DNA of 22,786 nt, from positions 1 to 22,786 of IMG/VR virus record IMGVR_UViG_2547132281_000007, one strand, 5' to 3'. Positions 1 through 21,353 of this stretch are shown one piece after another. The DNA is from a virus (Duplodnaviria > Heunggongvirae > Uroviricota > Caudoviricetes). The notes under the pieces were generated by a model, which worked only from the letters and a program-made list of their open reading frames with translations, ran no database searches and was not told the origin of the DNA. Positions within the stretch are counted from its first letter, which is position 1. Each line of letters begins with the position of its first letter. The position numbers and the translations under genes were made by a program.

Positions 1-258
1 ATGCAAACCGTTATTTTTGGTCGTTCGGGTTGCCCTTACTGTGTGCGTGCAAAAGATCTGGCTGAGAAATTGAGCAATGAACGCGATGATTTTCAGTATC
101 AGTATGTAGATATTCGTGCGGAAGGGATCACTAAAGAAGATCTACAACAAAAGGCAGGTAAACCCGTAGAAACCGTGCCGCAGATTTTTGTCGATCAGCA
201 ACATATCGGCGGCTATACCGATTTTGCTGCATGGGTGAAAGAAAATCTGGACGCCTGA
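1..258 (+). CDS. grxA: glutaredoxin 1
   Basis: 85-aa ORF beginning MQTVIFGRSGCPYCVRAKDLA with the CPYC active-site motif; recalled as near-identical to E. coli GrxA. ATG at position 1, stop at 256-258. Confidence 0.93.
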   Translation: MQTVIFGRSGCPYCVRAKDLAEKLSNERDDFQYQYVDIRAEGITKEDLQQKAGKPVETVPQIFVDQQHIGGYTDFAAWVKENLDA

Positions 259-267
259 TCGTCTGAC

Positions 268-300
268 AAGCCCTCGCGTTGAGGGCTTTACTGATTTTTT
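268..300 (+). terminator. putative Rho-independent terminator downstream of grxA
   Basis: GC-rich inverted repeat aagccctc / gagggctt (268-288) followed by a T-run ending at 300; it lies between the convergent grxA and ybjM ends. Confidence 0.45.
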
Positions 301-665
301 CTGTGCTGTGGTTTAAACAAACTACTGATAAATAAGAAACACAGTGCCCCCAGCGCACACCAGAACACCGCGCTTAGTAACCATGCCAGCTCTTGCCAGA
401 ATGAGCGCGTCGGTGAAAAAAACAGCCGCATAATGAGCATCGAACAGGGTGCCGCCAGCATTGCGCCAAACAGAGGTTTCAGGACTTCTCTACGCTGTGA
501 AAAGAAGCTGGCGACTGCTCCAGGAAGAATGAAAAATAGCAAGCCGATTTCAGGATGCCCGGCAGCCCGAAAAGCGCCTTTCATGTGCGTCGCCAGAAAA
601 AGGCACACCACAATGAAGAGGACAAAACAGCAGATTGCCCCCGCCCAACGTTGTTTATGTTTCAC
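288..665 (-). CDS. ybjM: inner membrane protein YbjM-like
   Basis: 125-aa hydrophobic ORF with several predicted TM segments, placed between grxA and ybjL as in the E. coli K-12 gene order. Identity rests on synteny and length, not on sequence recall. Confidence 0.7.
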   Translation of the reverse strand: MKHKQRWAGAICCFVLFIVVCLFLATHMKGAFRAAGHPEIGLLFFILPGAVASFFSQRREVLKPLFGAMLAAPCSMLIMRLFFSPTRSFWQELAWLLSAVFWCALGALCFLFISSLFKPQHRKNQ

Positions 666-934
666 TCGTTCCTCCTGACACTGCGTCTATCGAACACATT
701 TTTCGCCAGTGTGGCGTTCAGTAAGATAAAGCCGCTTCGCATTCCATGCTAATATAGGCCAACGCAATTCATATAGCCGTTGATACCTAATGTGATTACA
801 CTAGTAAAATATATTGTTACTTTACTATCGTTTAGGTGCGCTGAATGAATCTGCGCCCTGAATTCTGGTAAAAAACATTATCGTAAATTACCATTTCTTT
901 CAACAGCTTACTAGTAAACAAGAAGTTAGCCTCC

Positions 935-2620
935 GTGAATATAAACGTCGCCGAATTGTTAAATGGGAATTACATTCTGTTATTATTTGTGGTCCTCGCG
1001 CTTGGGCTATGTCTCGGAAAGTTACGACTTGGTTCGATCCAACTGGGTAATTCCATTGGCGTTTTAGTCGTATCGCTGTTATTAGGCCAACAACATTTCA
1101 GCATTAACACCGATGCGCTTAATCTTGGCTTTATGCTGTTTATTTTCTGCGTCGGGGTCGAAGCCGGACCGAACTTTTTTTCCATTTTTTTTCGCGATGG
1201 GAAAAATTACCTAATGTTAGCACTGGTGATGGTTGGCAGTGCGCTGGTGATCGCCTTAGGGTTAGGTAAGCTGTTTGGCTGGGATATTGGCCTGACGGCC
1301 GGTATGTTAGCAGGCTCTATGACGTCGACACCGGTTCTGGTCGGTGCTGGCGATACACTGCGTCATTCCGGCATGGAAAGCAGGCAGCTCTCACTGGCAC
1401 TGGATAATCTGAGCCTCGGGTATGCCTTAACCTATTTAATCGGTCTGGTGAGTTTGATTGTTGGTGCGCGTTACTTGCCGAAATTGCAGCATCAGGACTT
1501 ACAGACCAGCGCCCAGCAAATCGCCCGCGAACGTGGCCTGGACACTGATGCCAACCGTAAGGTTTATTTACCGGTGATCCGCGCCTATCGCGTCGGCCCG
1601 GAACTGGTGGCCTGGACCGACGGCAAAAATCTGCGTGAACTGGGTATTTATCGACAAACCGGCTGCTACATTGAACGTATTCGACGTAACGGGATTCTGG
1701 CAAATCCAGACGGTGATGCCGTGCTACAAATGGGCGATGAAATAGCGTTGGTAGGCTATCCCGACGCCCATGCCCGACTCGATCCCAGCTTCCGTAACGG
1801 TAAAGAAGTTTTCGATCGTGACCTTCTCGACATGCGTATCGTCACTGAAGAAGTGGTCGTTAAAAACCATAACGCTGTAGGTAAACGTCTCGCACAACTG
1901 AAGTTGACCGATCACGGTTGCTTCCTTAACCGCGTCATTCGTAGCCAGATTGAGATGCCGATAGATGACAACGTCGTGCTTAACAAAGGTGACGTTTTAC
2001 AAGTCAGCGGCGATGCCCGCCGCGTAAAAACCATCGCCGATCGCATCGGCTTTATCTCGATTCACAGCCAGGTCACTGACCTGCTGGCATTCTGCGCCTT
2101 CTTTGTTATTGGGCTGATGATCGGGATGATCACCTTCCAGTTCAGCACATTCAGTTTCGGCATGGGGAACGCTGCCGGGTTGTTATTCGCCGGAATTATG
2201 CTGGGCTTTATGCGTGCTAACCACCCGACCTTCGGTTACATTCCGCAAGGTGCATTAAGCATGGTGAAAGAGTTCGGCTTGATGGTGTTTATGGCAGGCG
2301 TTGGTCTGAGCGCCGGTAGCGGTATTAATAACGGCCTGGGCGCGATTGGCGGTCAGATGTTGATTGCCGGATTAATTGTCAGTCTTGTGCCCGTGGTTAT
2401 CTGTTTCTTGTTCGGTGCTTATGTATTGCGAATGAACCGCGCACTGTTGTTCGGCGCAATGATGGGCGCACGCACCTGCGCGCCGGCAATGGAGATCATC
2501 AGTGATACAGCTCGCAGTAACATCCCTGCGCTGGGCTATGCGGGCACCTACGCAATCGCCAACGTCCTGCTGACGCTGGCAGGGACAATCATCGTCATGG
2601 TATGGCCAGGATTAGGATAA
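935..2620 (+). CDS. ybjL: putative AAE-family transporter YbjL (two membrane domains flanking TrkA-C/RCK-C-like domains)
   Basis: 561-aa ORF with a GTG start, beginning [33 protein letters not shown]. Hydrophobic N- and C-terminal halves around a soluble central region; recalled as matching E. coli YbjL in sequence and length. Confidence 0.92.
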
Positions 2621-2732
2621 AACTGAAGTTGCCCTGAAAATGAAATTTTTTTGCACAACCGCAGAACTTTTCCGCAGGGCATCAGTCTTAATTAGTGCCA
2701 CTGCTTTTCTTTGATGTCCCCATTTTGTGGAG

Positions 2733-2778
2733 CCCATCAACCCCGCCATTTCGGTTCAAGGTTGATGGGTTTTTTGTT
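2733..2778 (+). terminator. putative Rho-independent terminator (host side, downstream of ybjL)
   Basis: 10-bp stem cccatcaacc / ggttgatggg (2733-2742 and 2760-2769) followed by TTTTTTGTT. The reverse strand has no U-run, so it is orientated for + strand transcripts. Confidence 0.45.
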
Positions 2779-2855
2779 GCCTGAAATTTAAGCTGTTTAA
2801 AATCATGATGTTAGAAACACTGTTTTTTAACGATGGCGACAAAATGGCGGCAGCG

Positions 2856-3074
2856 TCAAAGAGAGAGCGCCACCTGTCCTGATTTCATTGGATGCGGCTG
2901 AACCGGATTTGACTCTTTTGGCGTTGCAATCGAACGAACAAAAGTTTCATGGGTAACAAAAGTATGGCTGCAGTTAATGTTCTGGCACTGGTTGTAACGC
3001 TCTTTGGTCAATGAAGATACCTGAAAACTGCTGCGAGTATGGGCGGCACTTCCACACAGTGGGCAAATCATCAT
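2856..3074 (-). CDS. ogr: Ogr/Delta/B-family zinc-finger late-gene transcription activator
   Basis: 72-aa product MMICPLCGSAAH...YNQCQNINCSHTF with the CxxC...CxxxxC zinc-finger pattern, recalled as aligning with P2 Ogr (MFHCPLC...). Start chosen by homology at 3074; the longer ORF to 3107 has a GTG start and no RBS. Confidence 0.8.
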   Translation of the reverse strand: MMICPLCGSAAHTRSSFQVSSLTKERYNQCQNINCSHTFVTHETFVRSIATPKESNPVQPHPMKSGQVALSL

Positions 3075-3164
3075 TTTTCGAGTTCTCCCCATTTTTGCTA
3101 AATTCACAATAATGATACCGCATTATTCCATTTTGCAAACTTAAAAGTTCTCCATTGCGAAGAA

Positions 3165-4265
3165 TCATTCCATTTCGAAATCATCAATCCTCACTTCAAG
3201 CTCCAGACTGGTTGTAAAACCGTTATCGGGGCTGACGGTATGCGTCAGAGTCGTAATGGTCCATTCCGCATCATCTATCGGCTGTTTAAAGCCACTGACT
3301 TTCACTGGCATTTCCGTGTAGAGATCTGCCCGACCTTCTGCCAGTTGTAGCGAGAATGACGCAACGCCGCGTTGCAGGCGTTCCCACTGCATTTTCGCCG
3401 TCCGTTCGGCGTTGCTCCGGTTGGCATAGGTGCGATTAAGTACCAGCACGTTTTCATCCGTACCCACCAGGTAATCGCCCTGCTTCGCTTCCGGCTCTTT
3501 CTTCTGCTTCTTAGTTCTGCGCTTACGCTTCACCGTGGTGCTTTCTTTCTTCGCAGGTTCGCGGGTATGCAACCAGCTGGCAATTACGCCCGTGTAGGCT
3601 CCGCGATCTGCCAGGGTAAATCGGTGACTGTCGCCGTCCTTGCGTGTGATAGTGATCACTGGCAGAGGTTTACCAGTGGCGCTTTTGCCCTGCCCCTGCC
3701 GGATGAATAACAGATTGCCATTTTTCACCGACGCGATGGCACCGTACTGTCGCGCCAGCCGCATCAGAAAACTGCCGTCACTCTCATTAGTCTGGTCTAT
3801 ATGCTCCACGGGCTTATCCGACAGGTCTTTACCCAGTGCCATCTTCAGCTTGTGCCGCGCGGCTATTTCCTTCACCACTTCCCCGACGGTGGTCTTATGC
3901 CACGATTTTTCACGGCGGGTATTCAGCGTTTCCCGAAAATCAGCACTTCGCGCCCGGATAGTCAGGCGGTCCGGTGCGCCAGTGTGTTCAATCTCGTCCA
4001 CCGTGAATGCTCCTTTCGGGAAAAGCGACTGCCCCTTCCAGCCCAGCGCCAGCGTAATGACCGCACCACGGCGCGGCAGCACGATTTTTCCGTCGGCGTC
4101 GTCCAGCTCCAGATCAAGCTGGTCCGCTTCAAAGCCCCGATTGTCCGTCAGCGTCAGACTCATCAGGCGGTTATCCAGCACAGTGGTGATATCCTTACCC
4201 TCAATACTGATGCTGAATGCCGGAGTTTTGTTGCCTTTGTTAAGCAGTTCAGAGCTGAAATTCAC
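3165..4265 (-). CDS. P2 gpD-like tail protein
   Basis: 366-aa ORF with motifs LTLTDNRGFEADQLDLELDD and FTVDEIEHTGAPD, recalled as characteristic of P2 gene D product. Overlaps the upstream U gene by 4 bp. Confidence 0.9.
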   Translation of the reverse strand: MNFSSELLNKGNKTPAFSISIEGKDITTVLDNRLMSLTLTDNRGFEADQLDLELDDADGKIVLPRRGAVITLALGWKGQSLFPKGAFTVDEIEHTGAPDRLTIRARSADFRETLNTRREKSWHKTTVGEVVKEIAARHKLKMALGKDLSDKPVEHIDQTNESDGSFLMRLARQYGAIASVKNGNLLFIRQGQGKSATGKPLPVITITRKDGDSHRFTLADRGAYTGVIASWLHTREPAKKESTTVKRKRRTKKQKKEPEAKQGDYLVGTDENVLVLNRTYANRSNAERTAKMQWERLQRGVASFSLQLAEGRADLYTEMPVKVSGFKQPIDDAEWTITTLTHTVSPDNGFTTSLELEVRIDDFEME

Positions 4266-4741
4266 GACAGCAGCCCTCCCACCGTTTTACTGATATCGCT
4301 TAAGGCAGACGTTGTCGTATCCTGCAAATTATTCAGCTGCGCACTGAGATCACCGAACATATCGGACAGGGATTCATCCACCCGTTTGAGCGACAGGGTG
4401 AACTCAATCCGGCGCGGCATACCATCGCGGAAAAACTCCGTTTTAGTCTGATTCAGTCCCTCAATCACATACATGCCGTAAATCGTGCCGCTGCCTTCAA
4501 TCAGGGGCCATGCTTTCCCCTGTTCTGCCATCTGCTCCAGTGCCAGCAACGACAGCCTGCCGCCTGTTATTTCCGGCATAAGAACACCGGAAAGCGTCAG
4601 CATGTCGTTTTCCGGTCCCAGAAACTGCGTGGACGGACGTCGGTTTACCCGACTGTTTGCCGCATGTCGCCAGCTGCGTTGATACTGCAGTTCCTGATAC
4701 GGAACGGTGCGCAGCATAAACACGTACAATCCCAGCACCAT
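4262..4741 (-). CDS. P2 gpU-like tail protein
   Basis: 159-aa ORF MVLGLYVFMLRTVPYQELQ...; size and sequence recalled as matching P2 gpU, with translational coupling to D. Confidence 0.88.
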   Translation of the reverse strand: MVLGLYVFMLRTVPYQELQYQRSWRHAANSRVNRRPSTQFLGPENDMLTLSGVLMPEITGGRLSLLALEQMAEQGKAWPLIEGSGTIYGMYVIEGLNQTKTEFFRDGMPRRIEFTLSLKRVDESLSDMFGDLSAQLNNLQDTTTSALSDISKTVGGLLS

Positions 4742-4782
4742 CAGCCTGGAAAAGAAATCCGAGTTCTAATCGCTGGAGAAAA

Positions 4783-5040
4783 TTGCCTGATGGAACCATC
4801 ATTCAAATGGGAATATCAGCATCAGGGCCATTAGGCTCACCTGTAAATATCACCCTGCCGATATCTTTCAGCAATACCAATTATTGTGTTGTTGCATCGT
4901 ACGATAATGCACGGTCAGGTGTGTCAACAATGGTTAGTTTTGCAGCGTTACCTGTTTCACCATCGCAATTTTCCCTGATGTCATCTGTGACTGAGCAAGG
5001 AATAAATCCTTTTGCTTACTGGATTGCTTTTGGAGATTAA
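4783..5040 (+). pseudogene. orphan tail-fibre C-terminal cassette (alternative variable domain, 5'-truncated)
   Basis: Open frame from 4720 (TTG start annotated at 4783), on the opposite strand to the tail genes and immediately followed by a tail-fibre-assembly gene. It has no N-terminal shaft domain and no upstream crossover site; the product resembles distal tips of phage side tail fibres. Confidence 0.5.
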
Positions 5041-5043
5041 TAA

Positions 5044-5463
5044 ATGGATAGATACTTCTATTCACAAAAAGAAAATGGTTTTTTTACCGATTTAAATAAA
5101 GCACCTTCAGATGCTGTTGAGATAACCACGGATGAATGGCTGTTACTACTGGATGGTCAGGATAATGGCATGAAAATAGTCAGCAATCAGGAGGGATATC
5201 CGGTTTTGACAGAGCAACCACCTTTATCAAAAGAAAACCTTATTGCATTGGCGGATTTGAAAAAAAGAAAACTTATTAATGAAGCCAACGAGCACATGAA
5301 CAGCAGACAATGGCCAGGTAAAGCGGCTATTGGTCGTCTGAAAAGTGAGGAACTGGCGCAATATAATTTATGGCTGGATTATCTGGACGCACTGGAACTG
5401 GTTGATACCTCCAGTGCGCCAGATATTGAATGGCTTACGCCTCCGGCAGTTCAGGCCAGATGA
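5044..5463 (+). CDS. tail fibre assembly protein (alternative cassette, Tfa/U' type)
   Basis: 139-aa ORF with the C-terminal motif LVDTSSAPDIEWLTPPA typical of Tfa chaperones; sits 3 bp after the orphan fibre tip and converges on and overlaps G. Confidence 0.7.
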   Translation: MDRYFYSQKENGFFTDLNKAPSDAVEITTDEWLLLLDGQDNGMKIVSNQEGYPVLTEQPPLSKENLIALADLKKRKLINEANEHMNSRQWPGKAAIGRLKSEELAQYNLWLDYLDALELVDTSSAPDIEWLTPPAVQAR

Positions 5464-6040
5464 CATCCGGCGCGGTGCTGGTATCTGTTGCAGTCACCGC
5501 GTCAATGTAATCCAGCACGGCGTTAAGTCGGGTTGTTTCTGTCTGCGTCAGTTTACGTGCGGCCTGCAATTTCAGCTGAATCAGACTGATGGAAGCCATT
5601 GCAGCATCAATCAGTGACTGACGCTGTGCTTCTGCCGCGTCTACTGCGGCGCTATGCTGTGCCTCAGTATCGGTCACCCATTTCTCACCATCCCATTTAT
5701 CGTATGGCGTTAATGGGGCGATAGTGGTTGTATTTTCAGGGTAATCACCCGGAACTGTGATTTCTTTGGTATCTCCCGTTTCGGTACTATAGACAACTTC
5801 ACCGCGATGGTCTGGCACATATTCCCATGAGTTTAAATCTGCCGAACGACAGATTGCATAACCAGCTTTATGTGTACCTGGTGCATCCAGACAGGAACAT
5901 GCCGGGATACCGACGCCGACAGCGAGATATTCAGTTGATGTAGAAATATATTCCCGCGTTTCACCATCATAATTATAAACGGTAATATCTCCCGCTTTTA
6001 TGGCAATGAGTTCGCTATTTAATACAGCTTTATTCATCAT
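5435..6040 (-). CDS. tail fibre assembly protein (P2 gpG-like)
   Basis: 201-aa ORF with the Tfa C-terminal motif DTSTAPDVIWPELPEA; immediately downstream of H with a 4-bp overlap. Confidence 0.85.
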   Translation of the reverse strand: MMNKAVLNSELIAIKAGDITVYNYDGETREYISTSTEYLAVGVGIPACSCLDAPGTHKAGYAICRSADLNSWEYVPDHRGEVVYSTETGDTKEITVPGDYPENTTTIAPLTPYDKWDGEKWVTDTEAQHSAAVDAAEAQRQSLIDAAMASISLIQLKLQAARKLTQTETTRLNAVLDYIDAVTATDTSTAPDVIWPELPEA

Positions 6041-7593
6041 GCGGCCCTCACAATATAATTAAAAGCGATGTTACGAGGACGAGTTTCTGTACCTACATTT
6101 TCACTAATTTCACCATAACGTTTAACACTACGAGAGCTAAGAGCTCGTAGTGAGGAAGGCACCTTAAGACCGGGTTCGTCCGTTTTAACTATTCCCCCGT
6201 CACCGTATGTAGCCAGTATTCCTGGGTTTACGCCTTCCCGTGCACTTCCTGCGGCGAGTCCGTCCCCTGTCCATAATTCCATATAGTGTGCATGGTCCAA
6301 AATTGTGTGTGGCTGCCAATTAAGCAAAGCGCGACCAGTATCAATCCCGCGACCGTCATCCCAGCCACGAATAAATTCACCGCGTAAATCAGGCAATTTA
6401 TTGGTCGGGTAAGCCTTTGCCAGTTCCGGGTATTCTTCAGCAGAAAAAGCCGCACCATTGCATTTCAGCCAGCCTGTCGGCGGAGTGGCTGAAGGCCACG
6501 GAACAGGCACCCCAACCGGTAATGCAGAGCCTTCTCCCAAACCAAGGTATGTGAGAAGACCAGCTACATCCTTTCCACTCAAATTGGTAAGCGTATTGTC
6601 CAGCGGTTGTTTACCTGCCAGCGCATTAAGCATTGTCGTGGCAAAGTTCGGATCATTCCCCAGTGCCGCCGCCAGTTCGTTCAGTGTATCCAGTGCCGCA
6701 GGTGCAGAACCCACCATTCCTGCAATCGCCGATTTCACAAATGCCGTGGTGGCAATTTGTGTATTGTTGACCGACTGTGCCGCAGTAGGTGCGGTTGGCG
6801 TTCCGGTGAGTGCCGGACTCGACAGCGGCGCTTTCAGTGCCAGCGCATTGTTAATGGTGGTACTGAATTTCGGATCATTGTTAATGGCTGCGGCTATTTC
6901 TTTCAGCGTGTCCAGCGTGGCTGGCGCACCATTAATAAGAGCCGTCAGAGCCGCCTGAACAAACTCGGTGGTCGCAATCTGCGTGGTGTTATTCCCTGCT
7001 GCTGGCGTTGGCGCTTTGGGTGTCCCGGTAAACGTCGGACTTTCTTTGGGTGCATACTGTGAATGCGGGTCCGGTGCGGCAAGATGTTTTGCCATCTGAT
7101 CATCCGCGTACACCTTCAGCTCCAGTGCCTTGTCATCCACATACTTGCGGGTTGCCAGCACTACAGCAGGGTCGATTTTCAGGGTGATATTGTCCGTGCT
7201 GCTGGTAATCAGCACCATGCGCACGGTCTGAGTGCGCCCGCTACCTTCAGCCAGTTGCGGCTTATAGCTTTCCGGGCAGTTGCCCACGGCAATCAATGCC
7301 CCGGACTCATCAAACAAGCCCACTTCACGTATCCACCAACCGCCCTCGTTTTCAGGGATCACCTGTTCGGCAATAATCTGGCTGCTGTTCTGCGGGTCGA
7401 TATAAAGCATATTCAGCGCAGCCCGGCGTTTCTCATTTACCAGTGCCGTCTGCTTTGCGTCCGGCGTTGGCAATACTCCACCGCCATCGCCCACCGCCAT
7501 ATGGGTAATTTTTAGCGGCACACCGAGCGCGGCGGCGCTGGCAAGTTTCGCCGCGCCAATATCCGTCAGCAGGGTATAAAATTTTGTGCTCAT
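6037..7593 (-). CDS. tail fibre protein (P2 gpH-like)
   Basis: 518-aa ORF with a conserved P2 H-like N-terminus (MSTKFYTLLTDIGAAKLA...), internal tandem repeats (NTTQIATTEFV / NNTQIATTAFV) and a divergent C-terminal receptor-binding region. Confidence 0.9.
   Translation of the reverse strand: MSTKFYTLLTDIGAAKLASAAALGVPLKITHMAVGDGGGVLPTPDAKQTALVNEKRRAALNMLYIDPQNSSQIIAEQVIPENEGGWWIREVGLFDESGALIAVGNCPESYKPQLAEGSGRTQTVRMVLITSSTDNITLKIDPAVVLATRKYVDDKALELKVYADDQMAKHLAAPDPHSQYAPKESPTFTGTPKAPTPAAGNNTTQIATTEFVQAALTALINGAPATLDTLKEIAAAINNDPKFSTTINNALALKAPLSSPALTGTPTAPTAAQSVNNTQIATTAFVKSAIAGMVGSAPAALDTLNELAAALGNDPNFATTMLNALAGKQPLDNTLTNLSGKDVAGLLTYLGLGEGSALPVGVPVPWPSATPPTGWLKCNGAAFSAEEYPELAKAYPTNKLPDLRGEFIRGWDDGRGIDTGRALLNWQPHTILDHAHYMELWTGDGLAAGSAREGVNPGILATYGDGGIVKTDEPGLKVPSSLRALSSRSVKRYGEISENVGTETRPRNIAFNYIVRAA
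6532..6557. other. candidate Hin/Gin/Cin-family invertase crossover site inside the tail fibre gene
   Basis: 26-bp imperfect palindrome TTCTCCCAAACC-AA-GGTATGTGAGAA (12-2-12, AA core), matching recalled hixL TTCTTGAAAACCAAGGTTTTTGATAA at 20 of 26 positions. It encodes ...TYLGLGEG... at the expected constant/variable junction of H. Confidence 0.5.
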
Positions 7594-8195
7594 GGATTCA
7601 CTCTCATTGTGTCAATAACATGGACCGCCCCGCCTTCATGCGCGGTGCCACCGGAAATAATCGTTTCGTTGATATACGGATAGATCGTGATTTCTTCGCC
7701 AAGATAGCTGGCGGCTCCCACCCAATGCGGGCCGCTGGTCTGCAGATTGATGGACATGCCGATCATGTGGCGGCTACATGGTTTGGCATCGCTTATCAGT
7801 CGCTCAAGTTCCAGATAGGTATCTTCAGTGATGCCCTGGTCCTGCACGCCGATATCCAGGCGAAACGTGCCCGGTGTTTCTCCGGTCTGCCACCACTCAA
7901 TAATGCGGATCAGGAATCCGAACGGCTCCACCACCCGCCGCACGGCACTGGTGGTCCCTTTATGCTGATGAATATAAAAAGCATCCTTCACCACCTGGCG
8001 CTTGACGCTTTCTGTCCAGCCCTCGTCCCAGCGATCCACAGAGAACGCCCAGGCGAGATAAGGCAGGAAACTGACCGGACAGGTTGCCGGATTCCACAAG
8101 TCACGAAGCGGCACCTGCAGATCAGAAATCCCGCTGCAGGTTTGCGCCAGTCGGCGCTCCAGTGGTGTTGAACCCGGTGGCAGCAGACTATTCAT
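7590..8195 (-). CDS. baseplate assembly protein (P2 gpI-like)
   Basis: 201-aa ORF with LPYLAWAFSVDRWDEGW and GTFRLDIGV motifs, recalled as matching P2 gpI; 4-bp overlap with H. Confidence 0.88.
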   Translation of the reverse strand: MNSLLPPGSTPLERRLAQTCSGISDLQVPLRDLWNPATCPVSFLPYLAWAFSVDRWDEGWTESVKRQVVKDAFYIHQHKGTTSAVRRVVEPFGFLIRIIEWWQTGETPGTFRLDIGVQDQGITEDTYLELERLISDAKPCSRHMIGMSINLQTSGPHWVGAASYLGEEITIYPYINETIISGGTAHEGGAVHVIDTMRVNP

Positions 8196-9096
8196 CCGTT
8201 CCTCCGTTGGTTACGCTCCACTGCGTACATGATGCCGCCTGTGTTTTGTTCAGGACCACATCCGCCAGAGGAGAAGCCAGCTCCACACGCTGCACCCCCT
8301 CAACATGCAGGGCGGCAAAGATGGCGCTACGGCGAATATCCCGACCAAGACGCGTCTGACTGGCGATGTACTTCTGCAGGCTGGCTTTTGCCGCTGCCAT
8401 TACCGGCTCTGCTTCCGGTCCAGGATAGAGAAAAATGGTGGCTTCCACGCGATACGGGATGATTTCTGCGCTGCGAACCGTAAGACGGTCAGCCACCGGG
8501 CGGACGTTCTCACTGTTCAGAGCTTTTTCCACCACGTCCAGCAGGTCTTTTTCTGCAGTTCCATCGCCTTCGCGGCTAAGGACAGTCAGCACCACCTCTG
8601 CAGGTGCCGGGCTGGTTGCACTGGCATCCGCCACCCGACCGTCGGCGCTTCGGGCATGAAATTCATAAGCTGCAGTTGGCCCCGCAACAGAAAGCCCTTC
8701 AAAGGCTGCAGGCACACGCAGGCGCAACGCTTCATCGCTTTCCATCACAGCTGCAACGGGCGGCACAGCATCATTATCAGCAGGCGTCACCGTCAGGCGT
8801 GTCACGTTGTAGTTGGCAGCGAGCTGGTCAAGATCGCCGCCCATCGCGTAAGCCACCATCACCGCCTGCGCGGCTTCGTTAATGCGCTGGCGCAGAAGCA
8901 ACTCACGGTAAGCGTTCTCCTGCAACAATTTAGTGGCGGGTTCAGATTCCAGTTCCAGCGTGCGGATCACTGCTTCCTGCTCATCTTTCGGATGAAGCGC
9001 CACAAATTCTGCCTTGCGTTCGGCAAGCAGCGTCTCAAAGTCCGGCACATCCACAATCTGCGGTGCAGGCAACTGCGAAAGGTCAATCACTGCCAT
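8188..9096 (-). CDS. baseplate assembly protein (P2 gpJ-like)
   Basis: 302 aa from the ATG at 9096 (MAVIDLSQLPAPQIV...), preceded by a GGAG RBS; aligns in recall with P2 gpJ (MPIIDLNQLPAP...). The longer ORF to 9135 has no support. Confidence 0.88.
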   Translation of the reverse strand: MAVIDLSQLPAPQIVDVPDFETLLAERKAEFVALHPKDEQEAVIRTLELESEPATKLLQENAYRELLLRQRINEAAQAVMVAYAMGGDLDQLAANYNVTRLTVTPADNDAVPPVAAVMESDEALRLRVPAAFEGLSVAGPTAAYEFHARSADGRVADASATSPAPAEVVLTVLSREGDGTAEKDLLDVVEKALNSENVRPVADRLTVRSAEIIPYRVEATIFLYPGPEAEPVMAAAKASLQKYIASQTRLGRDIRRSAIFAALHVEGVQRVELASPLADVVLNKTQAASCTQWSVTNGGTDE

Positions 9097-9442
9097 TCTC
9101 TGCTCCTGTTGATACGGAAAGGGACACAGGCACACCGTTATTCCGCCGCCCGGTCAGCTCCACCACCATAGAACCGTCAAAGTTGCTGTTGATGGTGATG
9201 GAATCCAGCGTCAGCCGTGGCTCCCAGCGACTCAGCGCCACATACACTGCCGACATGACCTGCAGGCGTAATGCCGGATTTTGTGGCTGATCTATTAAAA
9301 CCGACAGGAGGGAACCATATTCCCGGCGGGCAATGCGGCTACCCTGCGGTGTCAGCAGAATGTCCCGCACCGACTGGCGCAGATGATCAATATCAGTAAT
9401 GACTTTGCCGCTGGTATTGTTCATCCCGCTATAAAGCGTCAT
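9083..9442 (-). CDS. baseplate protein (P2 gpW-like)
   Basis: 119-aa ORF MTLYSGMNNTSGKVITDIDHL...GSRIARREYGSLL, recalled as matching P2 gpW; the 3' end overlaps the J start. Confidence 0.88.
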   Translation of the reverse strand: MTLYSGMNNTSGKVITDIDHLRQSVRDILLTPQGSRIARREYGSLLSVLIDQPQNPALRLQVMSAVYVALSRWEPRLTLDSITINSNFDGSMVVELTGRRNNGVPVSLSVSTGAENGSD

Positions 9443-9564
9443 ACCGGGCCTCCGGTTGTATCGCCGCCTTTCAGGACGCCAGTATGCTGATGCGCATCAA
9501 CAACAATCCCGTTAGAGCTCATCGCTCCGCCGCCCTGGGTATCCGTTCTGGTCCGGTGCGCTGT
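9439..9564 (-). pseudogene. remnant 3' end of spike gene V (about 40 codons)
   Basis: Short open frame ending ...GGGAMSSNGIVVDAHQHTGVLKGGDTTGGPV* whose TGA overlaps the W ATG (ATGA), as V/W do in P2. It carries an HxH-type motif and is truncated by an in-frame stop at 9565-9567, with no N-terminal part present. Confidence 0.4.
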
Positions 9565-9593
9565 TCAACCGTGGGCGCAACAAAGCCGATAAG

Positions 9594-10436
9594 GTGGACA
9601 TCGACCTGTCCCACAACAATCTGGCCCCCGGCCTGCTGTGCGCAGACGGGCAATACCGCCAGATAGTCACCGTGGAAGATGCGGTGCGCGGCGGCTGTAA
9701 CCTGTTCGACCTCGACCAGTTGCGCATGGAGTACAGCCCGGACGAATACCAGAACCTGCTGATGTGTGAGTTCGTGGACGATCTCGCGTCCGTGTTCCCG
9801 CTCAGCGAGCTGCAGGCGTGCATGGTGGACAGCTGGGAAGTCTGGACCGACTTTCATGCACTGGCCCTGCGCCCGTTTGGCTGGCGCGAGGTGTGGATCG
9901 GTTATGACCCGGCAAAAGGTACGCAGAACGGCGACAGTGCCGGATGCGTTGTGGTGGCTCCGCCAGCCGTGCCGGGCGGTAAGTTCCGCATTCTTGAGCG
10001 TCACCAGTGGCGCGGGATGGACTTCCGCGCCCAGGCGGACGCCATCAAAAAACTGACCGAACAGTACAACGTGACCTATATCGGCATCGACTCGACCGGC
10101 GTCGGTCACGGGGTTTATGAGAACGTGAAAGCGTTCTTTCCTGCCGTCCGGGAGTTTGTCTACAACCCCAACGTTAAAAACGCGCTGGTACTCAAGGCCT
10201 ACGACATTATCAGCCACCGCCGTCTGGAGTTTGACGCCGGGCACACCGACATTGCGCAGTCATTCATGGCAATCCGTCGCGCAACCACCGCCAGTGGCAA
10301 CCGCCCAACCTATGAAGCCAGCCGCAGCGAAGAAGCCAGCCACGCCGATCTGGCCTGGGCAACAATGCACGCACTGTTTAACGAACCACTGCAGGGCGAG
10401 TCCGCCAATACCAGTAATATTGTGGAGATTTTTTGA
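9594..10436 (+). pseudogene. terminase large subunit (P2 gpP-like), C-terminal fragment only
   Basis: 280-aa ORF with a GTG start; motifs ...VWIGYDPAKG...DSAGCVVVAPP...KFRILERHQWRGMDF...YIGIDSTGVG...SHADLAWATMHA match the nuclease half of P2 terminase. The reading frame opens only at 9516, so the N-terminal ATPase half (about 300 aa) is absent. Confidence 0.75.
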
Positions 10437-11464
10437 TGGGAAAGAGTAAGAAGAACCGCGCTGCGTCGACGAACCAGATCCAGCATAAAAGTCAAACTAC
10501 AGCCGAAGCATTCAGCTTCGGTGATCCCGTTCCTGTTCTGGACCGCCGCGAACTACTGGACTATGTGGAATGCGTACAGACAGATCGCTGGTATGAGCCG
10601 CCAGTAAGCTTTGACGGACTGGCGCGCACCTTCCGCGCCGCCGTGCATCACAGTTCACCAATTGCGGTGAAATGCAACATTCTGACCAGTACCTACATCC
10701 CCCACCCGCTGCTCAGCCAGCAGGCTTTTTCACGTTTTGTGCAGGACTATCTGGTATTTGGTAACGCCTACCTGGAGAAACGCACGAACCGCTTCGGTGA
10801 AGTTATCGCCCTTGAGCCTGCTCTGGCAAAATACACCCGACGCGGGTTAGACCTGGATACCTACTGGTTTGTGCAATACGGTATGACAACCCAGCCGTAT
10901 CAGTTCACGAAAGGCAGCATTTTTCATCTGATGGAACCGGACATTAACCAGGAGATCTACGGCCTGCCCGGTTATCTTTCTGCCATTCCGTCCGCCCTGC
11001 TCAATGAGTCCGCCACGCTGTTCCGACGCAAATATTACATCAACGGCAGCCATGCAGGCTTCATCATGTATATGACCGATGCCGCGCAGAATCAGGAGGA
11101 TGTGAACAATCTCCGCAACGCGATGAAAAGTGCCAAAGGTCCTGGTAACTTCCGCAACCTGTTTATGTACTCGCCTAATGGCAAAAAAGACGGGCTTCAG
11201 ATCATCCCGTTGTCAGAAGTCGCAGCGAAGGATGAATTTCTGAACATCAAGAACGTGAGCCGGGACGATATGATGGCGGCGCATCGTGTACCGCCACAGA
11301 TGATGGGGATTATGCCGAATAATGTTGGGGGATTTGGGGATGTGGAGAAGGCTAGTAAGGTATTTGTACGCAATGAGTTAAATTCACTCCAACAACGAAT
11401 TAGAGAGGTGAATAATTGGCTGAATGATAAAGTAATAAAATTCCAAGCCTATTCGTTATCATGA
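10433..11464 (+). CDS. portal protein (P2 gpQ-like)
   Basis: 343-aa ORF overlapping the P stop; FSFGDPVPVLDRRELLDYVEC and SATLFRRKYYINGSHAGFIMY motifs recalled as matching P2 Q. Confidence 0.9.
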   Translation: MMGKSKKNRAASTNQIQHKSQTTAEAFSFGDPVPVLDRRELLDYVECVQTDRWYEPPVSFDGLARTFRAAVHHSSPIAVKCNILTSTYIPHPLLSQQAFSRFVQDYLVFGNAYLEKRTNRFGEVIALEPALAKYTRRGLDLDTYWFVQYGMTTQPYQFTKGSIFHLMEPDINQEIYGLPGYLSAIPSALLNESATLFRRKYYINGSHAGFIMYMTDAAQNQEDVNNLRNAMKSAKGPGNFRNLFMYSPNGKKDGLQIIPLSEVAAKDEFLNIKNVSRDDMMAAHRVPPQMMGIMPNNVGGFGDVEKASKVFVRNELNSLQQRIREVNNWLNDKVIKFQAYSLS

Positions 11465-11533: not shown

Positions 11534-12718
11534 CTATTCCTTATTCAAATCAACCAACTTGTCCATAAGAGTTTCATTGTTATACCCCTCATGCATTTCA
11601 GTTCGTTTCCCTGAAAATTTTCTTTTATGAAACTCATTTATATCAACATTAAGATGTTCACAAATTTGCTCAAACTCATCTAGATAGAGAGGATCAACAT
11701 AATAATTATCTGAAATCAATTTTTTTTTGCGCATTTCTTCGTAAGTTGATTTCAGAGTGTAACGTACTGGGCATAATGCCTTTATTATTTCATGAATAAA
11801 CTCATCATTGTTGACCCCATAATTTCTTAGCTTTAAAAATAGCTTTTTTCGATCATCGGCAATTTTAAAGCAAGCATCCGCAAACTCTAACTTTTCAACA
11901 CCACCAGCAACATAAAAGTCTAATAAAGCCTTCCTTTGAAGGCTAATATCTTCCTCCGGTTTATAATCGTTAACTTTAACACTTCTAATAGATTTCTCTT
12001 TATTTTTTCTACGAGCTGAAATAATATCACTTGGGATGCTAAGAGACATTGCAAGCAATGCCATAAGAATCAAACAAAGAAAAGCATATACAAACACCCT
12101 TATTATTTGATACCACCATTTACTTGTTGTAAAAACCTCACTCCAAAAAGATTCAGTCTGAGAGTCGCCACTCATTTTGAGAATATCAAACCCTTTTACA
12201 CCAGCGACTTTACCAACCAACGATATAACTGGACTCGAATTCTCACTCCCCAAAACAAAAAAGCTCACCCGAAATTTTTCGTCAGGCTCTATGATTACCG
12301 GATTGAAAACCAAAGAATCATTACTAATCCTTGGCTTTATATTGTCCTTTAGATACACACTGTCTGTAATAATTGTAGGTTTCTCTACAACTTCACCTCC
12401 AGAAACTCTTAACGTTAGTAATGATGAATCATCAAAGTCACCTTTCCTTATAACAGCATTACCAGTATTTTTAATTGTTACATTTATTAGCCATAAGTTT
12501 TTTTTGGCTGTTCTGAGTTCTTCCCCATTATATGAAATAGATAATCCTCCGACAGCTTGATGAATATCAAGAACTTTTGTCGGCTGCATTAGTTCAATCG
12601 AAATATTCCCTTGTTTTTCATAATAGAAGCCAACATAAATCGCCACAACAAAACTAACTAAAGCTACTACAGCCATGAATCCAGCAGACTTTACAAATCC
12701 CCATATCGAACTGAGCAT
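11534..12718 (-). CDS. hypothetical 2-TM membrane protein (prophage cargo; candidate superinfection-exclusion or abortive-infection factor)
   Basis: 394-aa ORF in AT-rich DNA. N-terminal TM helix (FMAVVALVSFVVAIYVGFYY), a beta-rich central domain, a second TM (WWYQIIRVFVYAFLCLILMALLAMSL) followed by a positively charged stretch (RRKNKEKSIR), then a helical C-terminal domain. No family recognised. Confidence 0.6.
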   Translation of the reverse strand: MLSSIWGFVKSAGFMAVVALVSFVVAIYVGFYYEKQGNISIELMQPTKVLDIHQAVGGLSISYNGEELRTAKKNLWLINVTIKNTGNAVIRKGDFDDSSLLTLRVSGGEVVEKPTIITDSVYLKDNIKPRISNDSLVFNPVIIEPDEKFRVSFFVLGSENSSPVISLVGKVAGVKGFDILKMSGDSQTESFWSEVFTTSKWWYQIIRVFVYAFLCLILMALLAMSLSIPSDIISARRKNKEKSIRSVKVNDYKPEEDISLQRKALLDFYVAGGVEKLEFADACFKIADDRKKLFLKLRNYGVNNDEFIHEIIKALCPVRYTLKSTYEEMRKKKLISDNYYVDPLYLDEFEQICEHLNVDINEFHKRKFSGKRTEMHEGYNNETLMDKLVDLNKE

Positions 12719-12781: not shown

Positions 12782-12800
12782 CTCGTATCCCCGCCACGCC
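12782..12800 (-). other. candidate cos site (cohesive-end sequence of P2/186 type)
   Basis: Minus strand reads GGCGTGGCGGGGATACGAG followed by CGCGCGC. Recalled P2 cos is GGCGAGGCGGGGAAAGCAC and 186 cos GGCGTGGCGGGGAAAGCAT, about 14-15 of 19 matches. The block is GC-rich between two AT-rich genes. Confidence 0.5.
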
Positions 12801-12935: not shown

Positions 12936-14054
12936 TTAGTTCGTAATGCCAATTTCCTTCAAAACTTTAGCCATTTCCGTCTGACTTAACTTGTTCCTGA
13001 ACAAAGTGAAATTTTTCATTTTTTCCGCTCGTTGCCCTTTTGAAATAGTAATCTTTCCTGATGCTGATAACTCAGAGTCAAAAAAATAACATATTGTTGA
13101 ATTTGAATTCTCCATATTTGACTTGATACAATTCCATATGCTTTCTTTTTTCATTTCACACATTCTAGGACCAAAAATGATCCCTTTAACAACATTAGCA
13201 TCATGATGAAAAATATGTCCAATATTTCGATTTACGCGTCTTTGAACATGCCGCTCACTCCCTATTCCTGCATTTGCCTCCGGAATAAACATTCGATATT
13301 CAGCTTCATATCTCCAAAATCTATTTTTAGTTAAAAATAACTCTGCAACATTTGCGCTTGGGTCTAGAAGTGAAACCTCTTTAGCCTGATTACTATATTT
13401 TATTGGCTTAACTGGAAAATTAAATTTATCTGATGAAAATAAATTTTCTCTTAGCTTCATTCCAGTATAGGGTATACCATCAATATTAAAATCCTGCGTT
13501 TCATAAATCACAACACAACCACTAAAGCCAGCAGCATAATGCGCCCACATCATACGATCTAACGCATTAGCTGAAAATGACACACTGAATACTGCAGGAA
13601 CTATTTTCCTATACAACCTTTCTTTGATACTGTTCTCGCAAAGTGAAACCAAATATTGGCGTGGTTCAGGAATATTTCCATAAATAGCAGAATTAATCAC
13701 ATTGATAGGAAGTAAACCATCATCTATGATCTTACGTATCTCATCAACGTGTGAGTCAAACAGGCTATCTAATGACTCAATGCTACTTTTTATTTTTTTT
13801 CCTCTAAAAATACGATTCAATCCCTTATGTATTTTCAAATTACTCAAATCCAATATGTGACTCAAATTTTTATAGGATTTATCGCAAGGAGAACGCAATA
13901 AAATATCCCATAATTTCAATTTATTATCGAAGCGATAATCTATATTGAGATCATTGGGATCATTCAATTGCGCAGGAGCGGAAAAATATAATTCATTATA
14001 ACGAATAGCTTTCTCGAAGAAGAAGTCCGGACGGTAATACTTGAAAAGATACAT
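12936..14054 (-). CDS. DUF2971-like hypothetical protein (prophage cargo at the P2 old/tin position; candidate anti-phage effector)
   Basis: 372-aa ORF in AT-rich DNA with an AGGT RBS. N-terminus MYLFKYYRPD...FSAPAQLNDPND and internal MMWAHYAAGFSGCVVIYE resemble my recollection of the DUF2971 signature (LYKY..., FNDPxE, MWshYa). Positioned between the replication/tum module and cos. Confidence 0.65.
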   Translation of the reverse strand: MYLFKYYRPDFFFEKAIRYNELYFSAPAQLNDPNDLNIDYRFDNKLKLWDILLRSPCDKSYKNLSHILDLSNLKIHKGLNRIFRGKKIKSSIESLDSLFDSHVDEIRKIIDDGLLPINVINSAIYGNIPEPRQYLVSLCENSIKERLYRKIVPAVFSVSFSANALDRMMWAHYAAGFSGCVVIYETQDFNIDGIPYTGMKLRENLFSSDKFNFPVKPIKYSNQAKEVSLLDPSANVAELFLTKNRFWRYEAEYRMFIPEANAGIGSERHVQRRVNRNIGHIFHHDANVVKGIIFGPRMCEMKKESIWNCIKSNMENSNSTICYFFDSELSASGKITISKGQRAEKMKNFTLFRNKLSQTEMAKVLKEIGITN

Positions 14055-15024: not shown

Positions 15025-17439
15025 TTAATACAGGTTCCGCCACTTATCATCTTCCTGCAAACGCTGGTTCCGATAGAAAATACGCAGGCCTGCTCCTGAC
15101 GGAATGCTGCCGCCGCGAAGGAGTAAATCGACCTCTTTCTCGCTGCCATCAAATCTTCTGGACTTCAGTTCATAGACGAGCTGCTGTCGTTGATGGTCTG
15201 TAATTCGCTGTTTGTAGTCTCTACGCCGTTTCGGTTTCACCAGGCGTAACCTTGCAGCCAGTTCCCGGCGTTCTTTTTTGTTCATACTGTGCAGGTAATC
15301 GTGCAACTCCTTGTCATCCATACGGGTGATATCCGTTCTGGTATCCCCATCAGCTGATTTGTCTTTCCCTTGTTGGTACAAATTTTCAGCAAGGGGACAG
15401 TTATTGCCACGAGTCCAAGGGGCGCAAGCGCCCTGGTCGGCTGCCGCCTCCTGAACGTCAACGGCCTTACGAACCATTTTCCACTTCACTGCATGAGTGC
15501 AGATCTTGCCCTCTGCAATGGGTGACCAGATGCCATAAATACGAATACCGTGATCGCCATAGGCGGTCGGCTCTTCGTTAATTTCATAAGCAGTTCTGAT
15601 GAGGTGATATTTACGGGGAACCAGTACACCTCCCTGCTTCATGATATAGGTGGCAAAACAACCAGCATCAGCAGCAGCCAGAATGGCATCAAGGCGCGGG
15701 TTATCCAGTACCGGCACACCTGCTTTTTTGTCACCCTGCTGCCTTGCCGCCTGACCAGCCAGCAATCGCAGTTCACGGTAAGCCTGACGCCCCGGAATAC
15801 CAAAGAAGCGGAATTGCTGAACACGATGCAAAGACGCCCAGGCATTCACGTATTCAGCGTTATCACGAAGAGATTTACCCGTTTCCTTGCTGATCTCGCC
15901 AGCCAGACCACGCCCGTCAATGTTCTTACTGATGTATTTCGCTATGTAGCTTGTCGGCGTTCCTTTGCGCGGGTTAATCAGCTCAGACTTAAAGCGCGGC
16001 CCCGTGTTATTGCCCAGCTCCTCGCGGTCTTCACGGATAGCAAACTTACGCAACAATGCAGTAATGGCGCGGCGGTCTTTTTTGCGCATGAAACACAACA
16101 GGTGCCAGTGAACTGTGCCGTCGTGATGCGGCTCAGCCACCCGCACGCCATACCAGCGCAACCCGGCTTTGTGCATCGCCTTACGAAATGCAGCAAACAT
16201 ACCGACCAGATAATCGCTGCTTTGTCTTACCGTCGCGTTTTTCCAGGTCGGGTTGGGTCTGCCGTTATTTAGCGTGGAATGGAAACGTGACGGACAGGTA
16301 ATGGTGTAGAAAACGGCGCAGTCACCGCGCATTTCCGCGATAAGCTCCAGACCTTTAACACAGGCCATCATCTCATTGCGGCGATGCGCCGGGTTGCTGC
16401 AGCTGGCGTTTACCACATCTTCCATATCCAGCGCGTCTCCGTCTTCGTTCACCAGTTCATGAGAACGGAAAAACTCCAGCGACTTACGGCGCTGCTCACG
16501 TTTATGCATCACAGCTTCATAGCTGACATAGGGAGATGCTTTTTTGCTGACCAGGCAGACAGCACGCAACTGCTCTTCCCGCCATTCGCAACGCATCTTC
16601 CACAATTTCCGATACCACCAGTCGGCGCACAGCATACGCGCCAGCGAGCCCGGAATGAGTTCATAGGGCACTGGTTTACGGCGGTTTCTTTTCCGACGGA
16701 GTTGCTCAAACGCAGGCGGGATGACATCCAAACGTAGGGTTTCCGCTGCCACCCTTTCCCATGTCTTGCGGATTTCTTCTGGCTTAACATCATCGGTGGC
16801 GTACAAATCACCACAAGCGGCATCAAGACACATGCTCATATGCGCAGCGACAAGGGTAGACAGGCGTTTCACCTGATCCTGACTCATTTCAGGCAGGATC
16901 AGCAGGCCGTCCAGCCCTTCATGGCTTGCCATAAAGCGAAAAGAAGTGGATAGCTGACTGTCGCGTACATGCTCCAGTCGTTCCAGACATGGCTTAATCG
17001 TCTCACGCAGATAGCGAGAATAAGCCTTTGGCCTGCCCAGGCTGCTGAAATATTCGATACGTTGCATCAGCGGCTTGCTGATGTGGGAAGGCTGGGCGCT
17101 GACGTCCGCCAGAATGACCATGTCCGGGTTAAAACGCTGCTGTTCATGCGCCAGCTTTGCCCGACTAATGAGCTTATCCTGCTCCATTTCACGCTGGACA
17201 GGATCACGGGATTCATTAAAGAAATAACGCTCCCAGACCTGCTCACTCAGTGCATCGCGGCGCAGCTGTTCCTGCTCATTATCGGCAGCGTACAGAGTGA
17301 TCAGGTTTGAAAGTGCAGACTCCAGCGCAACTTCCGCCGGGTCCAGATACGGGTTAATGGCCTTTTTCGGGCCGTTCCATGAAAATGCTACAGCGGCCTC
17401 GTTAAAGCCGCTAGAGTTGCTCATATCGTCATGACTCAT
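15025..17439 (-). CDS. replication initiation endonuclease (P2 gpA-like, rolling-circle)
   Basis: 804-aa ORF of the size and family expected for P2 gpA (recalled as about 760 aa), directly downstream of dam with an ATGA overlap. Confidence 0.88.
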
Positions 17440-19159: not shown

Positions 19160-19241
19160 TTATGCATCCCCACAACACATCTACTAAAAAATTTTTGATA
19201 TGATCCATTACCAACATATTGATAGCTAGAAGGAATCATCA

Positions 19242-19490
19242 ATGTTGAACCCGGTTGAAAGAGAGCGTATAGAGCAACTTGAAAACGAGATCTCCAGTCT
19301 TCGCGATGAGGTTGCTGTTCAACGAATTCTTGTTTCAGGTCTGATCCACTCCTTATTTCGAACTGACTCAGCAAATCAATCAGCATTTTTTGAGCTCCTC
19401 CGCGAAGAATTAAACAAACTTCCTTTAGGTTCGGTTAAACAACAAGAATTCACTCATCTGATACAGACACTGATAGATCGTTACCGATAA
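19242..19490 (+). CDS. hypothetical small coiled-coil protein (opposite strand inside early region)
   Basis: 82-aa ORF with an AGGAA RBS 8 nt upstream of the ATG and heptad-like sequence (ERERIEQLENEISSLRDEVAVQRIL). The overlapping minus-strand ORF 19123..19386 is low-complexity and less protein-like. Confidence 0.4.
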   Translation: MLNPVERERIEQLENEISSLRDEVAVQRILVSGLIHSLFRTDSANQSAFFELLREELNKLPLGSVKQQEFTHLIQTLIDRYR

Positions 19491-19705
19491 ATATTTCGCC
19501 GATAACGTTCAAGAGGTGATGTCTTTATACGCATCACTTCTTGTACTTTTTCACCACGTATAAAGGTTCCATCCTTTAGCGTGAAAAAGTAGCTACCATC
19601 GCCCGACAACGACGGATAGCAACTGAGCAAATCATCTTCAGGTACTGAATAATTCTCCCCTCTGTAACGAAAGTGATAAACCACTTCATTTTCTGCCGCA
19701 TACAT
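19481..19705 (-). CDS. hypothetical protein
   Basis: 74-aa ORF (MYAAENEVVYHFRYRGENYSVPEDD...) overlapping the 3' part of ORF 19576..19872 in another frame; only one of the two is likely to be real over the shared region. Confidence 0.3.
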   Translation of the reverse strand: MYAAENEVVYHFRYRGENYSVPEDDLLSCYPSLSGDGSYFFTLKDGTFIRGEKVQEVMRIKTSPLERYRRNIYR

Positions 19706-19872
19706 TTGGACTTTCTCCGTTTCCTCGTGGTCAATTCAGACAGCAATTCATCTTGTGAACGGCACGGATGCCAGCGTTTACCATCCTCACCCATGATCCA
19801 GCCGTGACCGTAGTGCATTGCCGGGCTTTGTTTTACCAGCAGCGATGCAAATGATGGTTCTTTCGTCAGCAT
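19576..19872 (-). CDS. hypothetical early protein downstream of cII (186 fil/dhr position)
   Basis: Internal ATG at 19872 just downstream of the cII stop (MLTKEPSFASLLVK...). The C-terminal third looks low-complexity, so a frameshift or the overlapping ORF may be the true reading. Confidence 0.3.
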   Translation of the reverse strand: MLTKEPSFASLLVKQSPAMHYGHGWIMGEDGKRWHPCRSQDELLSELTTRKRRKSKCMRQKMKWFITFVTEGRIIQYLKMICSVAIRRCRAMVATFSR

Positions 19873-19879
19873 AAGCACC

Positions 19880-20395: not shown

Positions 20396-20421
20396 TGCCT
20401 CTGATGTATTTCAGAATCGAA

Positions 20422-20643
20422 CTAACTAAGGTTTAGATTGCATTCTGAAAGCGCATCAACGGTCATGGCTGCTATGTTGATCATCACTTTTTCGCGTTTT
20501 TTATCTTTGCGCAAACGGTGACGGATAAGGCGTCCGTCAGCCAACATGTCATTGATGGTATCGATGGACAGCCCTGTCAGCTCGCTATAGCGCTCAATAG
20601 TCACATGAGGCGTGGTAAGAGTGATTGAAATGTTAGGTCTCAT
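20422..20643 (-). CDS. Apl/Cox-like excisionase and transcriptional regulator
   Basis: 73-aa basic ORF with an HTH-like segment, first gene of the early operon and divergent from the repressor, as apl in 186 or cox in P2. Confidence 0.65.
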
Positions 20644-21338: not shown

Positions 21339-21353
21339 TACCGGGAGGAAACT

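Follow-up and report, generated by a model that had tools for sequence, protein, structure and literature searches.

Invertible tail-fibre segments that are switched by invertases of the Din family are known from several phages, namely the G segment of Mu with Gin, the C segment of P1 with Cin and the P segment of e14 with Pin. Intact relatives of the prophage described here resemble these systems in that they combine a constant fibre part, two opposed tips with their own chaperones, inverted sites of the 26-bp type and an adjacent gene for a serine invertase. An apparently intact relative is present in E. coli LD22-1 (NZ_CP047876.1, approximately 3016.6-3052 kb), where it occupies the same chromosomal site as the element studied here and has the gene order ogr-D-U-T-E'-E-FII-FI-invertase-[H' tip, G', G]-H-I-J-W-V-S-R-lysis-X-L-M-N-O-P-Q-cargo-A...int. 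It is related to Escherichia phage 500465-1 (Wadgaonvirus) and to Klebsiella phage 4LV2017 (Elveevirus). The same native order, with the invertase gene between FI and the cassette, is found in phage 500465-1 and in Klebsiella phage KP12.

Decayed relatives of these prophages are also on record. Escherichia coli B (strains REL606 and BL21) carries a remnant at the same ybjL site in which, as in the element described below, an internal deletion ending in the invertase/fibre-cassette region has taken the genes for sheath, tube and tape measure, and a second deletion affects the head/lysis region. The two remnants differ in that the one in E. coli B has D fused to an invertase fragment and K fused to O (scaffold), has lost U, retains an intact P and carries a retron as cargo. 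The same module was lost via other breakpoints in strain C21, where U' is fused to H, and in FORC_082, where T is fused to a fragment of FI and that fragment in turn to H. Since several remnants at this site differ in their breakpoints, loss of the tail region is recurrent and belongs to the usual picture of prophage decay. The literature yielded nothing usable on recurrent deletion breakpoints in P2-like prophages or on the E. coli B remnant.

A prophage remnant downstream of ybjL

The stretch of DNA analysed in this work, hereafter the window, comprises 22,786 nucleotides. Its bases 1-2700 carry the E. coli genes grxA, ybjM and ybjL and are 100% identical to many complete genomes. The prophage begins at about position 2765 and runs in reverse P2 orientation; an attR core located just 3' of ybjL (2765-2783) is identical to the attR given in the annotation of Klebsiella phage 4LV2017. 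The element is a P2/186-like (Peduoviridae) prophage of E. coli, a defective one integrated downstream of ybjL, as shown by its gene content, its attR core and its colinearity with Peduoviridae records and with the LD22-1 prophage. The genes ogr, D, U, H, G, I, J, W, P, Q, A, CI/CII and int are present in P2 order at the attachment site. Of the tail, head and lysis set, T, E', E, FII and FI are gone, as is everything from S and R through the lysis genes to X, L, M, N and O, and both V and P lack their 5' parts. The prophage is thus a remnant and not a functional element able to form particles.

The gene for the late-gene activator, ogr (2856-3074, minus strand, 72 aa), is retained; it matches PHROG 603, and Pfam Ogr_Delta is assigned to it in identical contigs. 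Next to it lie the tail gene D (3165-4265, minus strand), which is full length with 366 aa (PHROG 52, E 1.5e-174) and aligns with LD22-1 without gaps, and the tail gene U (4262-4741, minus strand), which is clipped at its 5' end and encodes 159 instead of 161 aa (PHROG 76, E 3.5e-81). On the far side of the tail-fibre cassette, the baseplate genes I, J and W are intact (7590-9442, minus strand; PHROGs 48, 6/4226 and 43) and 99.4% identical to LD22-1. The baseplate gene V is reduced to its final 103 nt (9439-9541, minus strand); V homology stops at 9541, which corresponds to position 21525 of the LD22-1 prophage locus (L011). Comparison with LD22-1 places a deletion junction with a TA overlap at 9540-9541 (junction 2). 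It leads into a truncated terminase gene, P', of which the last 897 nt are left, and the portal gene Q (together 9540-11464, plus strand; Pfam Terminase_6C and Phage_portal). The open reading frames for the C-terminal terminase fragment and for the portal protein extend from 9594 to 10436 and from 10433 to 11464, respectively, on the plus strand, and the P' DNA is 100% identical to P of LD22-1. Beyond Q follow two cargo genes, the replication gene A and genes for a Dam-type methylase, CII, CI and integrase.

The window and the LD22-1 prophage thus share the attachment site (ybjL / rcdA), the gene order outside the deletions, a DNA identity of 96-99.9%, the type and orientation of the invertible cassette and two cargo genes next to cos that are 99.9% identical. 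They differ in that LD22-1 keeps 6,100 bp from T to the start of the H' tip and 7,366 bp from V to the 5' part of P. Further differences concern the immunity region (19160-21675), where the window encodes a CI of 191 aa versus 293 aa in LD22-1 and the latter has two extra genes, and the stretch following int, where approximately 350 bp and a small gene of LD22-1 are missing from the end of the window (22745-22786). The listed int open reading frame (402 aa) extends to the final base of the window. The cargo genes (11534-12718 and 12936-14054, both on the minus strand) flank a cos-like sequence at 12782-12800. One of their products, with 394 aa, is without a family match, and the other, with 372 aa, matches the PADLOC candidate defence family PDC-S31 (E 1e-23) and, weakly, DUF2971. 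In related remnants, the same position is occupied by retrons, GmrSD, SIR2/HIRAN or TIR genes, which are of the defence type.

The junction between U and the tail-fibre cassette

A sequence-only reading of the window had proposed that U directly adjoins the tail-fibre cassette and that the tape-measure, sheath and tube genes are missing. Gene calls and the ends of homology bear this out: genes for tape measure, tail chaperones, tube or sheath were found neither between U and the fibre cassette nor elsewhere in the window. The breakpoints were defined by BLAST alignment with complete relatives, as that reading had recommended. On the left, homology stops at exactly 4743 in four relatives in which T comes after U (Klebsiella phage 4LV2017, Escherichia phage 500465-1, FORC_082 and LD22-1), and on the right it begins at exactly 4741 in five relatives with the spare fibre tip (O55:H7 CB9615, 6EVA, 504838, O78 strain 3 and LD22-1). 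The trinucleotide TCA at 4741-4743, in which the two stretches of homology overlap, is present in both parent sequences and forms a 3-nt overlap (junction 1).

Window positions 1-4743 correspond to L011 5882-10624 with 98.8% identity and without gaps, and positions 4741-6086 correspond to L011 16722-18066. When the TCA overlap is allowed for, deletion 1 comprises 6,100 bp (L011 10625-16724), a value that is an estimate because LD22-1 is a close relative (1-4% divergent) and not the direct ancestor. The deleted segment contained T, E', E, FII and FI, in agreement with the earlier proposal that these genes had been removed, and every intact relative examined has these genes between U and the cassette, together with a DNA invertase gene where the cassette is invertible. 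The invertase, whose loss had been regarded as probable, is certainly gone, and with it went the left crossover site (L011 16655-16674), while the spare tip lost 34 of its 133 codons. U was shortened by its first 4 nt, and the intergenic region between FI and the invertase gene disappeared with its TGT-N12-ACA late-promoter element. Two further suggestions need correction. The 40 bp between the U start and the fibre tip are not a spacer, as 4742-4782 codes for the truncated tip in a frame that is open across the junction, and the G-FI interval of this lineage is made up of the invertible cassette and the invertase gene and not of Z/fun.

Junction 1 is without filler and without a mobile element, and its flanks bracket contiguous DNA in intact relatives. 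In a simulation, the probability of an overlap of at least 3 nt at a random join was 0.057. As the 3-nt overlap alone is not clearly above chance, the case for a deletion rests on the colinearity with intact relatives and not on microhomology. The clean junction is compatible with the suggested removal in a single event.

The truncated invertible cassette

The cassette comprises a spare inverted tail-fibre tip, H' (4741-5040, plus strand; Pfam Gp53-like_C), of which codons 35-133 of 133 are left and which includes an open reading frame for a tail-fibre C-terminus of 85 aa (4783-5040, plus strand), the intact spare assembly gene G' (5044-5463, plus strand; PHROG 188), which has the same length as in LD22-1, the assembly gene G in the expressed orientation (5435-6040, minus strand; PHROG 105, E 2.7e-98) and the tail-fibre gene H (6037-7593, minus strand, 518 aa; PHROG 327). 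Two opposed tips, each with an assembly chaperone, are therefore recognizable: the tip of H with G on the minus strand, and the truncated H' with G' on the plus strand. The H' tip is 99.6-96% identical to gp53-like tip open reading frames of other E. coli prophages. Homology begins 99-102 nt into the tip open reading frames of these relatives, and H' in the window is without a start and without a crossover site. The only invertase crossover site that remains, CTTCTCCCAAACCAAGGTATGTGAGAA (6531-6557), lies inside H and equals the right inverted-repeat arm of phage 500465-1. Its partner arm is present in loci L001, L003 and L011 and missing from the window; a search for inverted repeats finds the pair in L001 and L003. 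No open reading frame for a recombinase lies between U and the cassette, and the invertase gene of the relatives falls within the stretch that is deleted here. In strain 6EVA the cassette is flipped, with the spare tip of the window fused to H, which identifies the spare tip as a real alternative exon and indicates that the inversion switch works in relatives. Compared with the Din-family systems, the window lacks an invertase gene and a second crossover site, and its spare tip has been shortened by 34 codons at its start. Without the invertase and the partner site, the fibre switch is frozen and H is locked to its present tip.

The former segment (4741-6556) is also 96.9% identical to a pinE-linked segment in an unrelated tail cluster of non-P2 type in O55:H7 CB9615, and this homology ends at the crossover site inside H. 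The match exemplifies exchange of the cassette between different types of phages.

Expression signals of U and D

The native U product starts with MMMVLG, which is shortened to MVLG in the window by loss of two of the three initial methionine codons. At the DNA level, U has lost its first ATG and one further base; an in-frame ATG is kept, and an in-frame stop is located 24 nt upstream of the present U ATG. The native G-rich ribosome-binding site of U sat in the end of T and was lost together with T, and the sequence upstream of U is now antisense fibre-tip DNA. The statement that U and D were left intact is thus correct for D, which is full length and aligns without gaps, and incorrect for U, which has lost its 5' end and its ribosome-binding site.

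That both genes lack a promoter, as had also been stated, agrees with our comparison, since the Ogr-type late promoter before FI lies inside deletion 1. The LD22-1 prophage has three late-promoter regions, each with a TGT-N12-ACA element, and none of these regions matches the window: the one before FI was taken by deletion 1, and those before V and between O and P were taken by deletion 2. No TGT-N12-ACA element is left anywhere in the prophage. Likewise, no sigma-70-like site was found on the minus strand from 4742 to 9700, i.e. from U to junction 2, and scans for consensus promoters and terminators gave nothing informative beyond this absence of promoter-like sites on the minus strand upstream of U. 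U and D are thus without their Ogr-dependent late promoter. As the two deletions together removed all late promoters, ogr has been kept without a target, and the structural genes are probably silent passengers.

Junction 2 and recurrent breakpoints

Compared with LD22-1, deletion 2 (7,366 bp, at 9540/9541 with the TA overlap) extends from V, which lost its 5' part, to P, which lost its first 870 nt, and took S, R, the lysis genes, X, L, M, N and O in between. The breakpoint in P lies between window positions 9541 and 9542 (L011 28891 and 28892) within GC(G/T)TA^TCCGTTCTGG, where the caret marks the break, and recurs to the nucleotide in other remnants. All junctions at this P site read ...(C/G)GTA^TCCGTTCTGGTCCGG. 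The site is joined to at least seven different left partners, which are located in D (L011 9448, in remnant L027), at the U/T boundary (10636, L033), in T (11900, L030, and 12008, L021), in V (21525, the window), upstream of the holin gene (24641, L024) and in N (27015, L023). Among the complete E. coli genomes that carry this part of P, 16 of 1,175 (approximately 1%) have it cut within the 120 nt tested.

The P' alleles of the other remnants are 2.6-3.6% divergent from that of LD22-1 and the window and up to 3.7% divergent among themselves. Remnants L020 and L021 have a common left breakpoint in T and P' alleles that differ by 0.7%, and the two seem to belong to a single lineage, in which L020 underwent an additional loss of 51 nt of P that stops 3 nt short of the GTG of the residual P' open reading frame (GGTA^AGGTGG). 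Apart from this pair, the P-site junctions represent independent events, because their left partners differ and their P' alleles diverge. Descent of all P-site junctions from one ancient event was rejected on these same grounds and because P' of the window is that of the intact phage.

Sites other than that in P were also reused, namely in D (L011 9448, in REL606 and L027), T (11900, in L030 and Survcare253), FI (15832, in FORC_082 and L023), J (20834-20838, in C21 and L023), V (21525, in the window and L024) and K (approximately 24193, in Survcare253 and L043). The reused endpoints include 12008, and the loci behind them are L005, L006, L007, L023, L024, L027, L030, L042 and L043. In independent remnants, the reused sites outside P are paired with different partners. 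Among the 33 endpoints not at the P site, the expected number of coincident pairs was 0.23 and the observed number 5-6 (P ~4e-6). Both the protein look-up and the pattern scan favour the P site, which introduces an ascertainment bias there, whereas the coincidences outside P were not selected for. Most of the reused sites conform to SSGTA^W, a TA overlap at the junction is far commoner than expected by chance (0.3% per junction in the null model), and GCGTA^TCCGTTCTGGTCC and GGGTA^ACGCC are candidate break-site sequences. The remnant L043 (GCA_012566545.1), likewise next to ybjL, has a 17-nt piece of the lysozyme gene K between a truncated T and a truncated A, an arrangement that suggests either several breaks rejoined at once or nested deletions.

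These coincidences may mean that deletions in P2-like prophages are non-random, with a sequence-specific nuclease or recombinase of phage or host breaking the DNA at a few SSGTA^W sites, that in P among them, and the ends being joined mostly with a TA overlap. Junction 2 would then be a direct product and junction 1 a product trimmed by 10-12 nt. We put this forward tentatively and consider it unlikely.

Several candidate agents for the recurrent breaks were considered. Nicking by the rolling-circle A protein was rejected, as the P2 nick site, GCGCCTCG^GAGTCCTGTCAATAACTGT (annotated in NC_001895), has a homologue in gene A of the window (approximately 15400-15430, minus strand) that is unlike GC(G/T)TA^TCCGTTCTGG. 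Cleavage at cos by terminase was rejected because the cos-like sequence does not resemble the hot sites, nor does the crossover site of the invertase match them. A 13-mer at the P hot site, TATCCGTTCTGGT (9540-9552), is repeated at 15330-15342 (plus strand) in gene A, approximately 75 nt from the ori homologue, and most related loci have it in their A genes. P2 and 186, however, lack it, and a search of gene A of the hot-site remnant L023 that allowed one mismatch did not find it, which makes the link to gene A weak.

Occurrence of the junction

None of 5,426 complete E. coli genomes contained junction 1, nor did the phage collection, the GTDB species representatives (one genome per species) or the JGI metagenomes. 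It was traced by a protein look-up, in which the clipped U protein of 159 aa was on record in 13 contigs. An exact 30-mer across the junction is present in six fetched contigs from five samples (GCA_000166615.2, GCA_001912305.1 with two contigs, GCA_002458215.1, SRR11281108 and SRR11281204), and the ENA metagenome scaffold ERZ28623223 also crosses the junction with 99.9% identity. GCA_000166615.2 equals the window at 100% over 10.7 kb and has both deletions. At least six draft or read assemblies, independent of one another, show the same join, which is therefore a fixed allele of a lineage and not an assembly error. In 9 of 10 sampled contexts of the same ogr, U is followed by T through FI, and the tenth context is a different remnant.

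Origin of the junction

Taken together, junction 1 marks an internal deletion of approximately 6.1 kb in a P2/186-like remnant, which joined codon 2/3 of U to codon 35 of the inverted spare tip, an account that we hold with high confidence. The segment between these two points was most likely dropped in one step, by illegitimate end joining, either independent of homology or assisted by microhomology, or by replication slippage at TCA. The 3-nt overlap does not discriminate between these mechanisms, because 5.7% of random joins show such an overlap. As a consequence, tape measure, chaperones, tube and sheath are missing, and because of this no tail can be built; the further deletion at 9540/9541 took the other late promoters.

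The initiating breaks may nevertheless have been non-random, because both breakpoints lie 10-12 nt from GTA/TAC-type sites, a kind of site at which breakpoints recur in other remnants. Junction 1 could accordingly be pictured as the trimmed product of two sequence-directed breaks made by the same process as junction 2 and many of the junctions in related remnants, with cuts at GCGTCGTA^TCC just upstream of U and at AGA^TACCGG in the spare tip, resection of approximately 10-12 nt on each side and joining at TCA. The left of these sites, L011 10636, is the breakpoint to the nucleotide in remnant L033 and is separated from junction 1 by 12 nt, the right breakpoint has a TACCG site at a distance of approximately 10 nt, both sites being on the deleted side, and breakpoints do coincide among independent remnants well beyond expectation. 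However, junction 1 itself is without the GTA/TA signature, loose SSGTA/TACSS motifs occur every ~167 nt, which gives a chance of approximately 9% for the right side, and none of the candidate enzymes checked emerged as the agent, so that we consider this origin unlikely. We are similarly doubtful that junction 1 is the last of at least two successive deletions. Nested deletions do occur, L020 being L021 minus a further 51 nt at the same junction, and the window itself has two separate deletions, but no filler or residual fragment is seen at junction 1 and all contigs with the clipped U share one junction.

Deletion by the resident DNA invertase, through recombination between a crossover site and a pseudo-site near U, would account for the loss of the invertase gene together with one crossover site, and invertases of the Din family are known to act, at low frequency, on quasi-sites. 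It was rejected as very improbable, because the right breakpoint (L011 16722) falls within the segment, 48 nt beyond the arm at L011 16655-16674, and neither breakpoint resembles the 26-bp site. An assembly artefact, in which the tail genes had collapsed out of the contig, might be suspected from several draft contigs that stop 29-76 nt past the junction, the fibre cassette being repeated in the genome. Such an error is highly implausible: three contigs extend far on both sides of the junction and three short ones cross it too, the sequence at the junction is unique with an overlap of just 3 nt, and the 30-mer recurs in separate samples. Finally, the juxtaposition of U and cassette could be the native order of an undescribed phage lineage, to which we give almost no credence. 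An intact phage with this order, the finding that would have spoken against a deletion, was looked for; U beside the fibre cassette has no record in the phage collection and occurs in none of the 5,426 complete E. coli genomes, nearly all sampled ogr contexts contain T through FI, and the cuts run through the middle of sequences, namely the start of U on one side and the fibre tip on the other. The single-step deletion hence remains our preferred explanation.

Implications

Junction 1 is a new allele of a familiar event, ordinary prophage decay. It documents to the nucleotide the loss of the tail module and of the fibre switch in one lineage of E. coli, which by itself carries little weight. 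For annotation, it means that U, D, W, J, I, H and G should not be taken here as a functional tail or tailocin locus and that the 85-aa open reading frame at 4783-5040 is a pseudogene fragment. The reuse of breakpoints by relatives that decayed independently could matter more, as it would make prophage decay at this site amenable to study in terms of one specific activity that breaks DNA.
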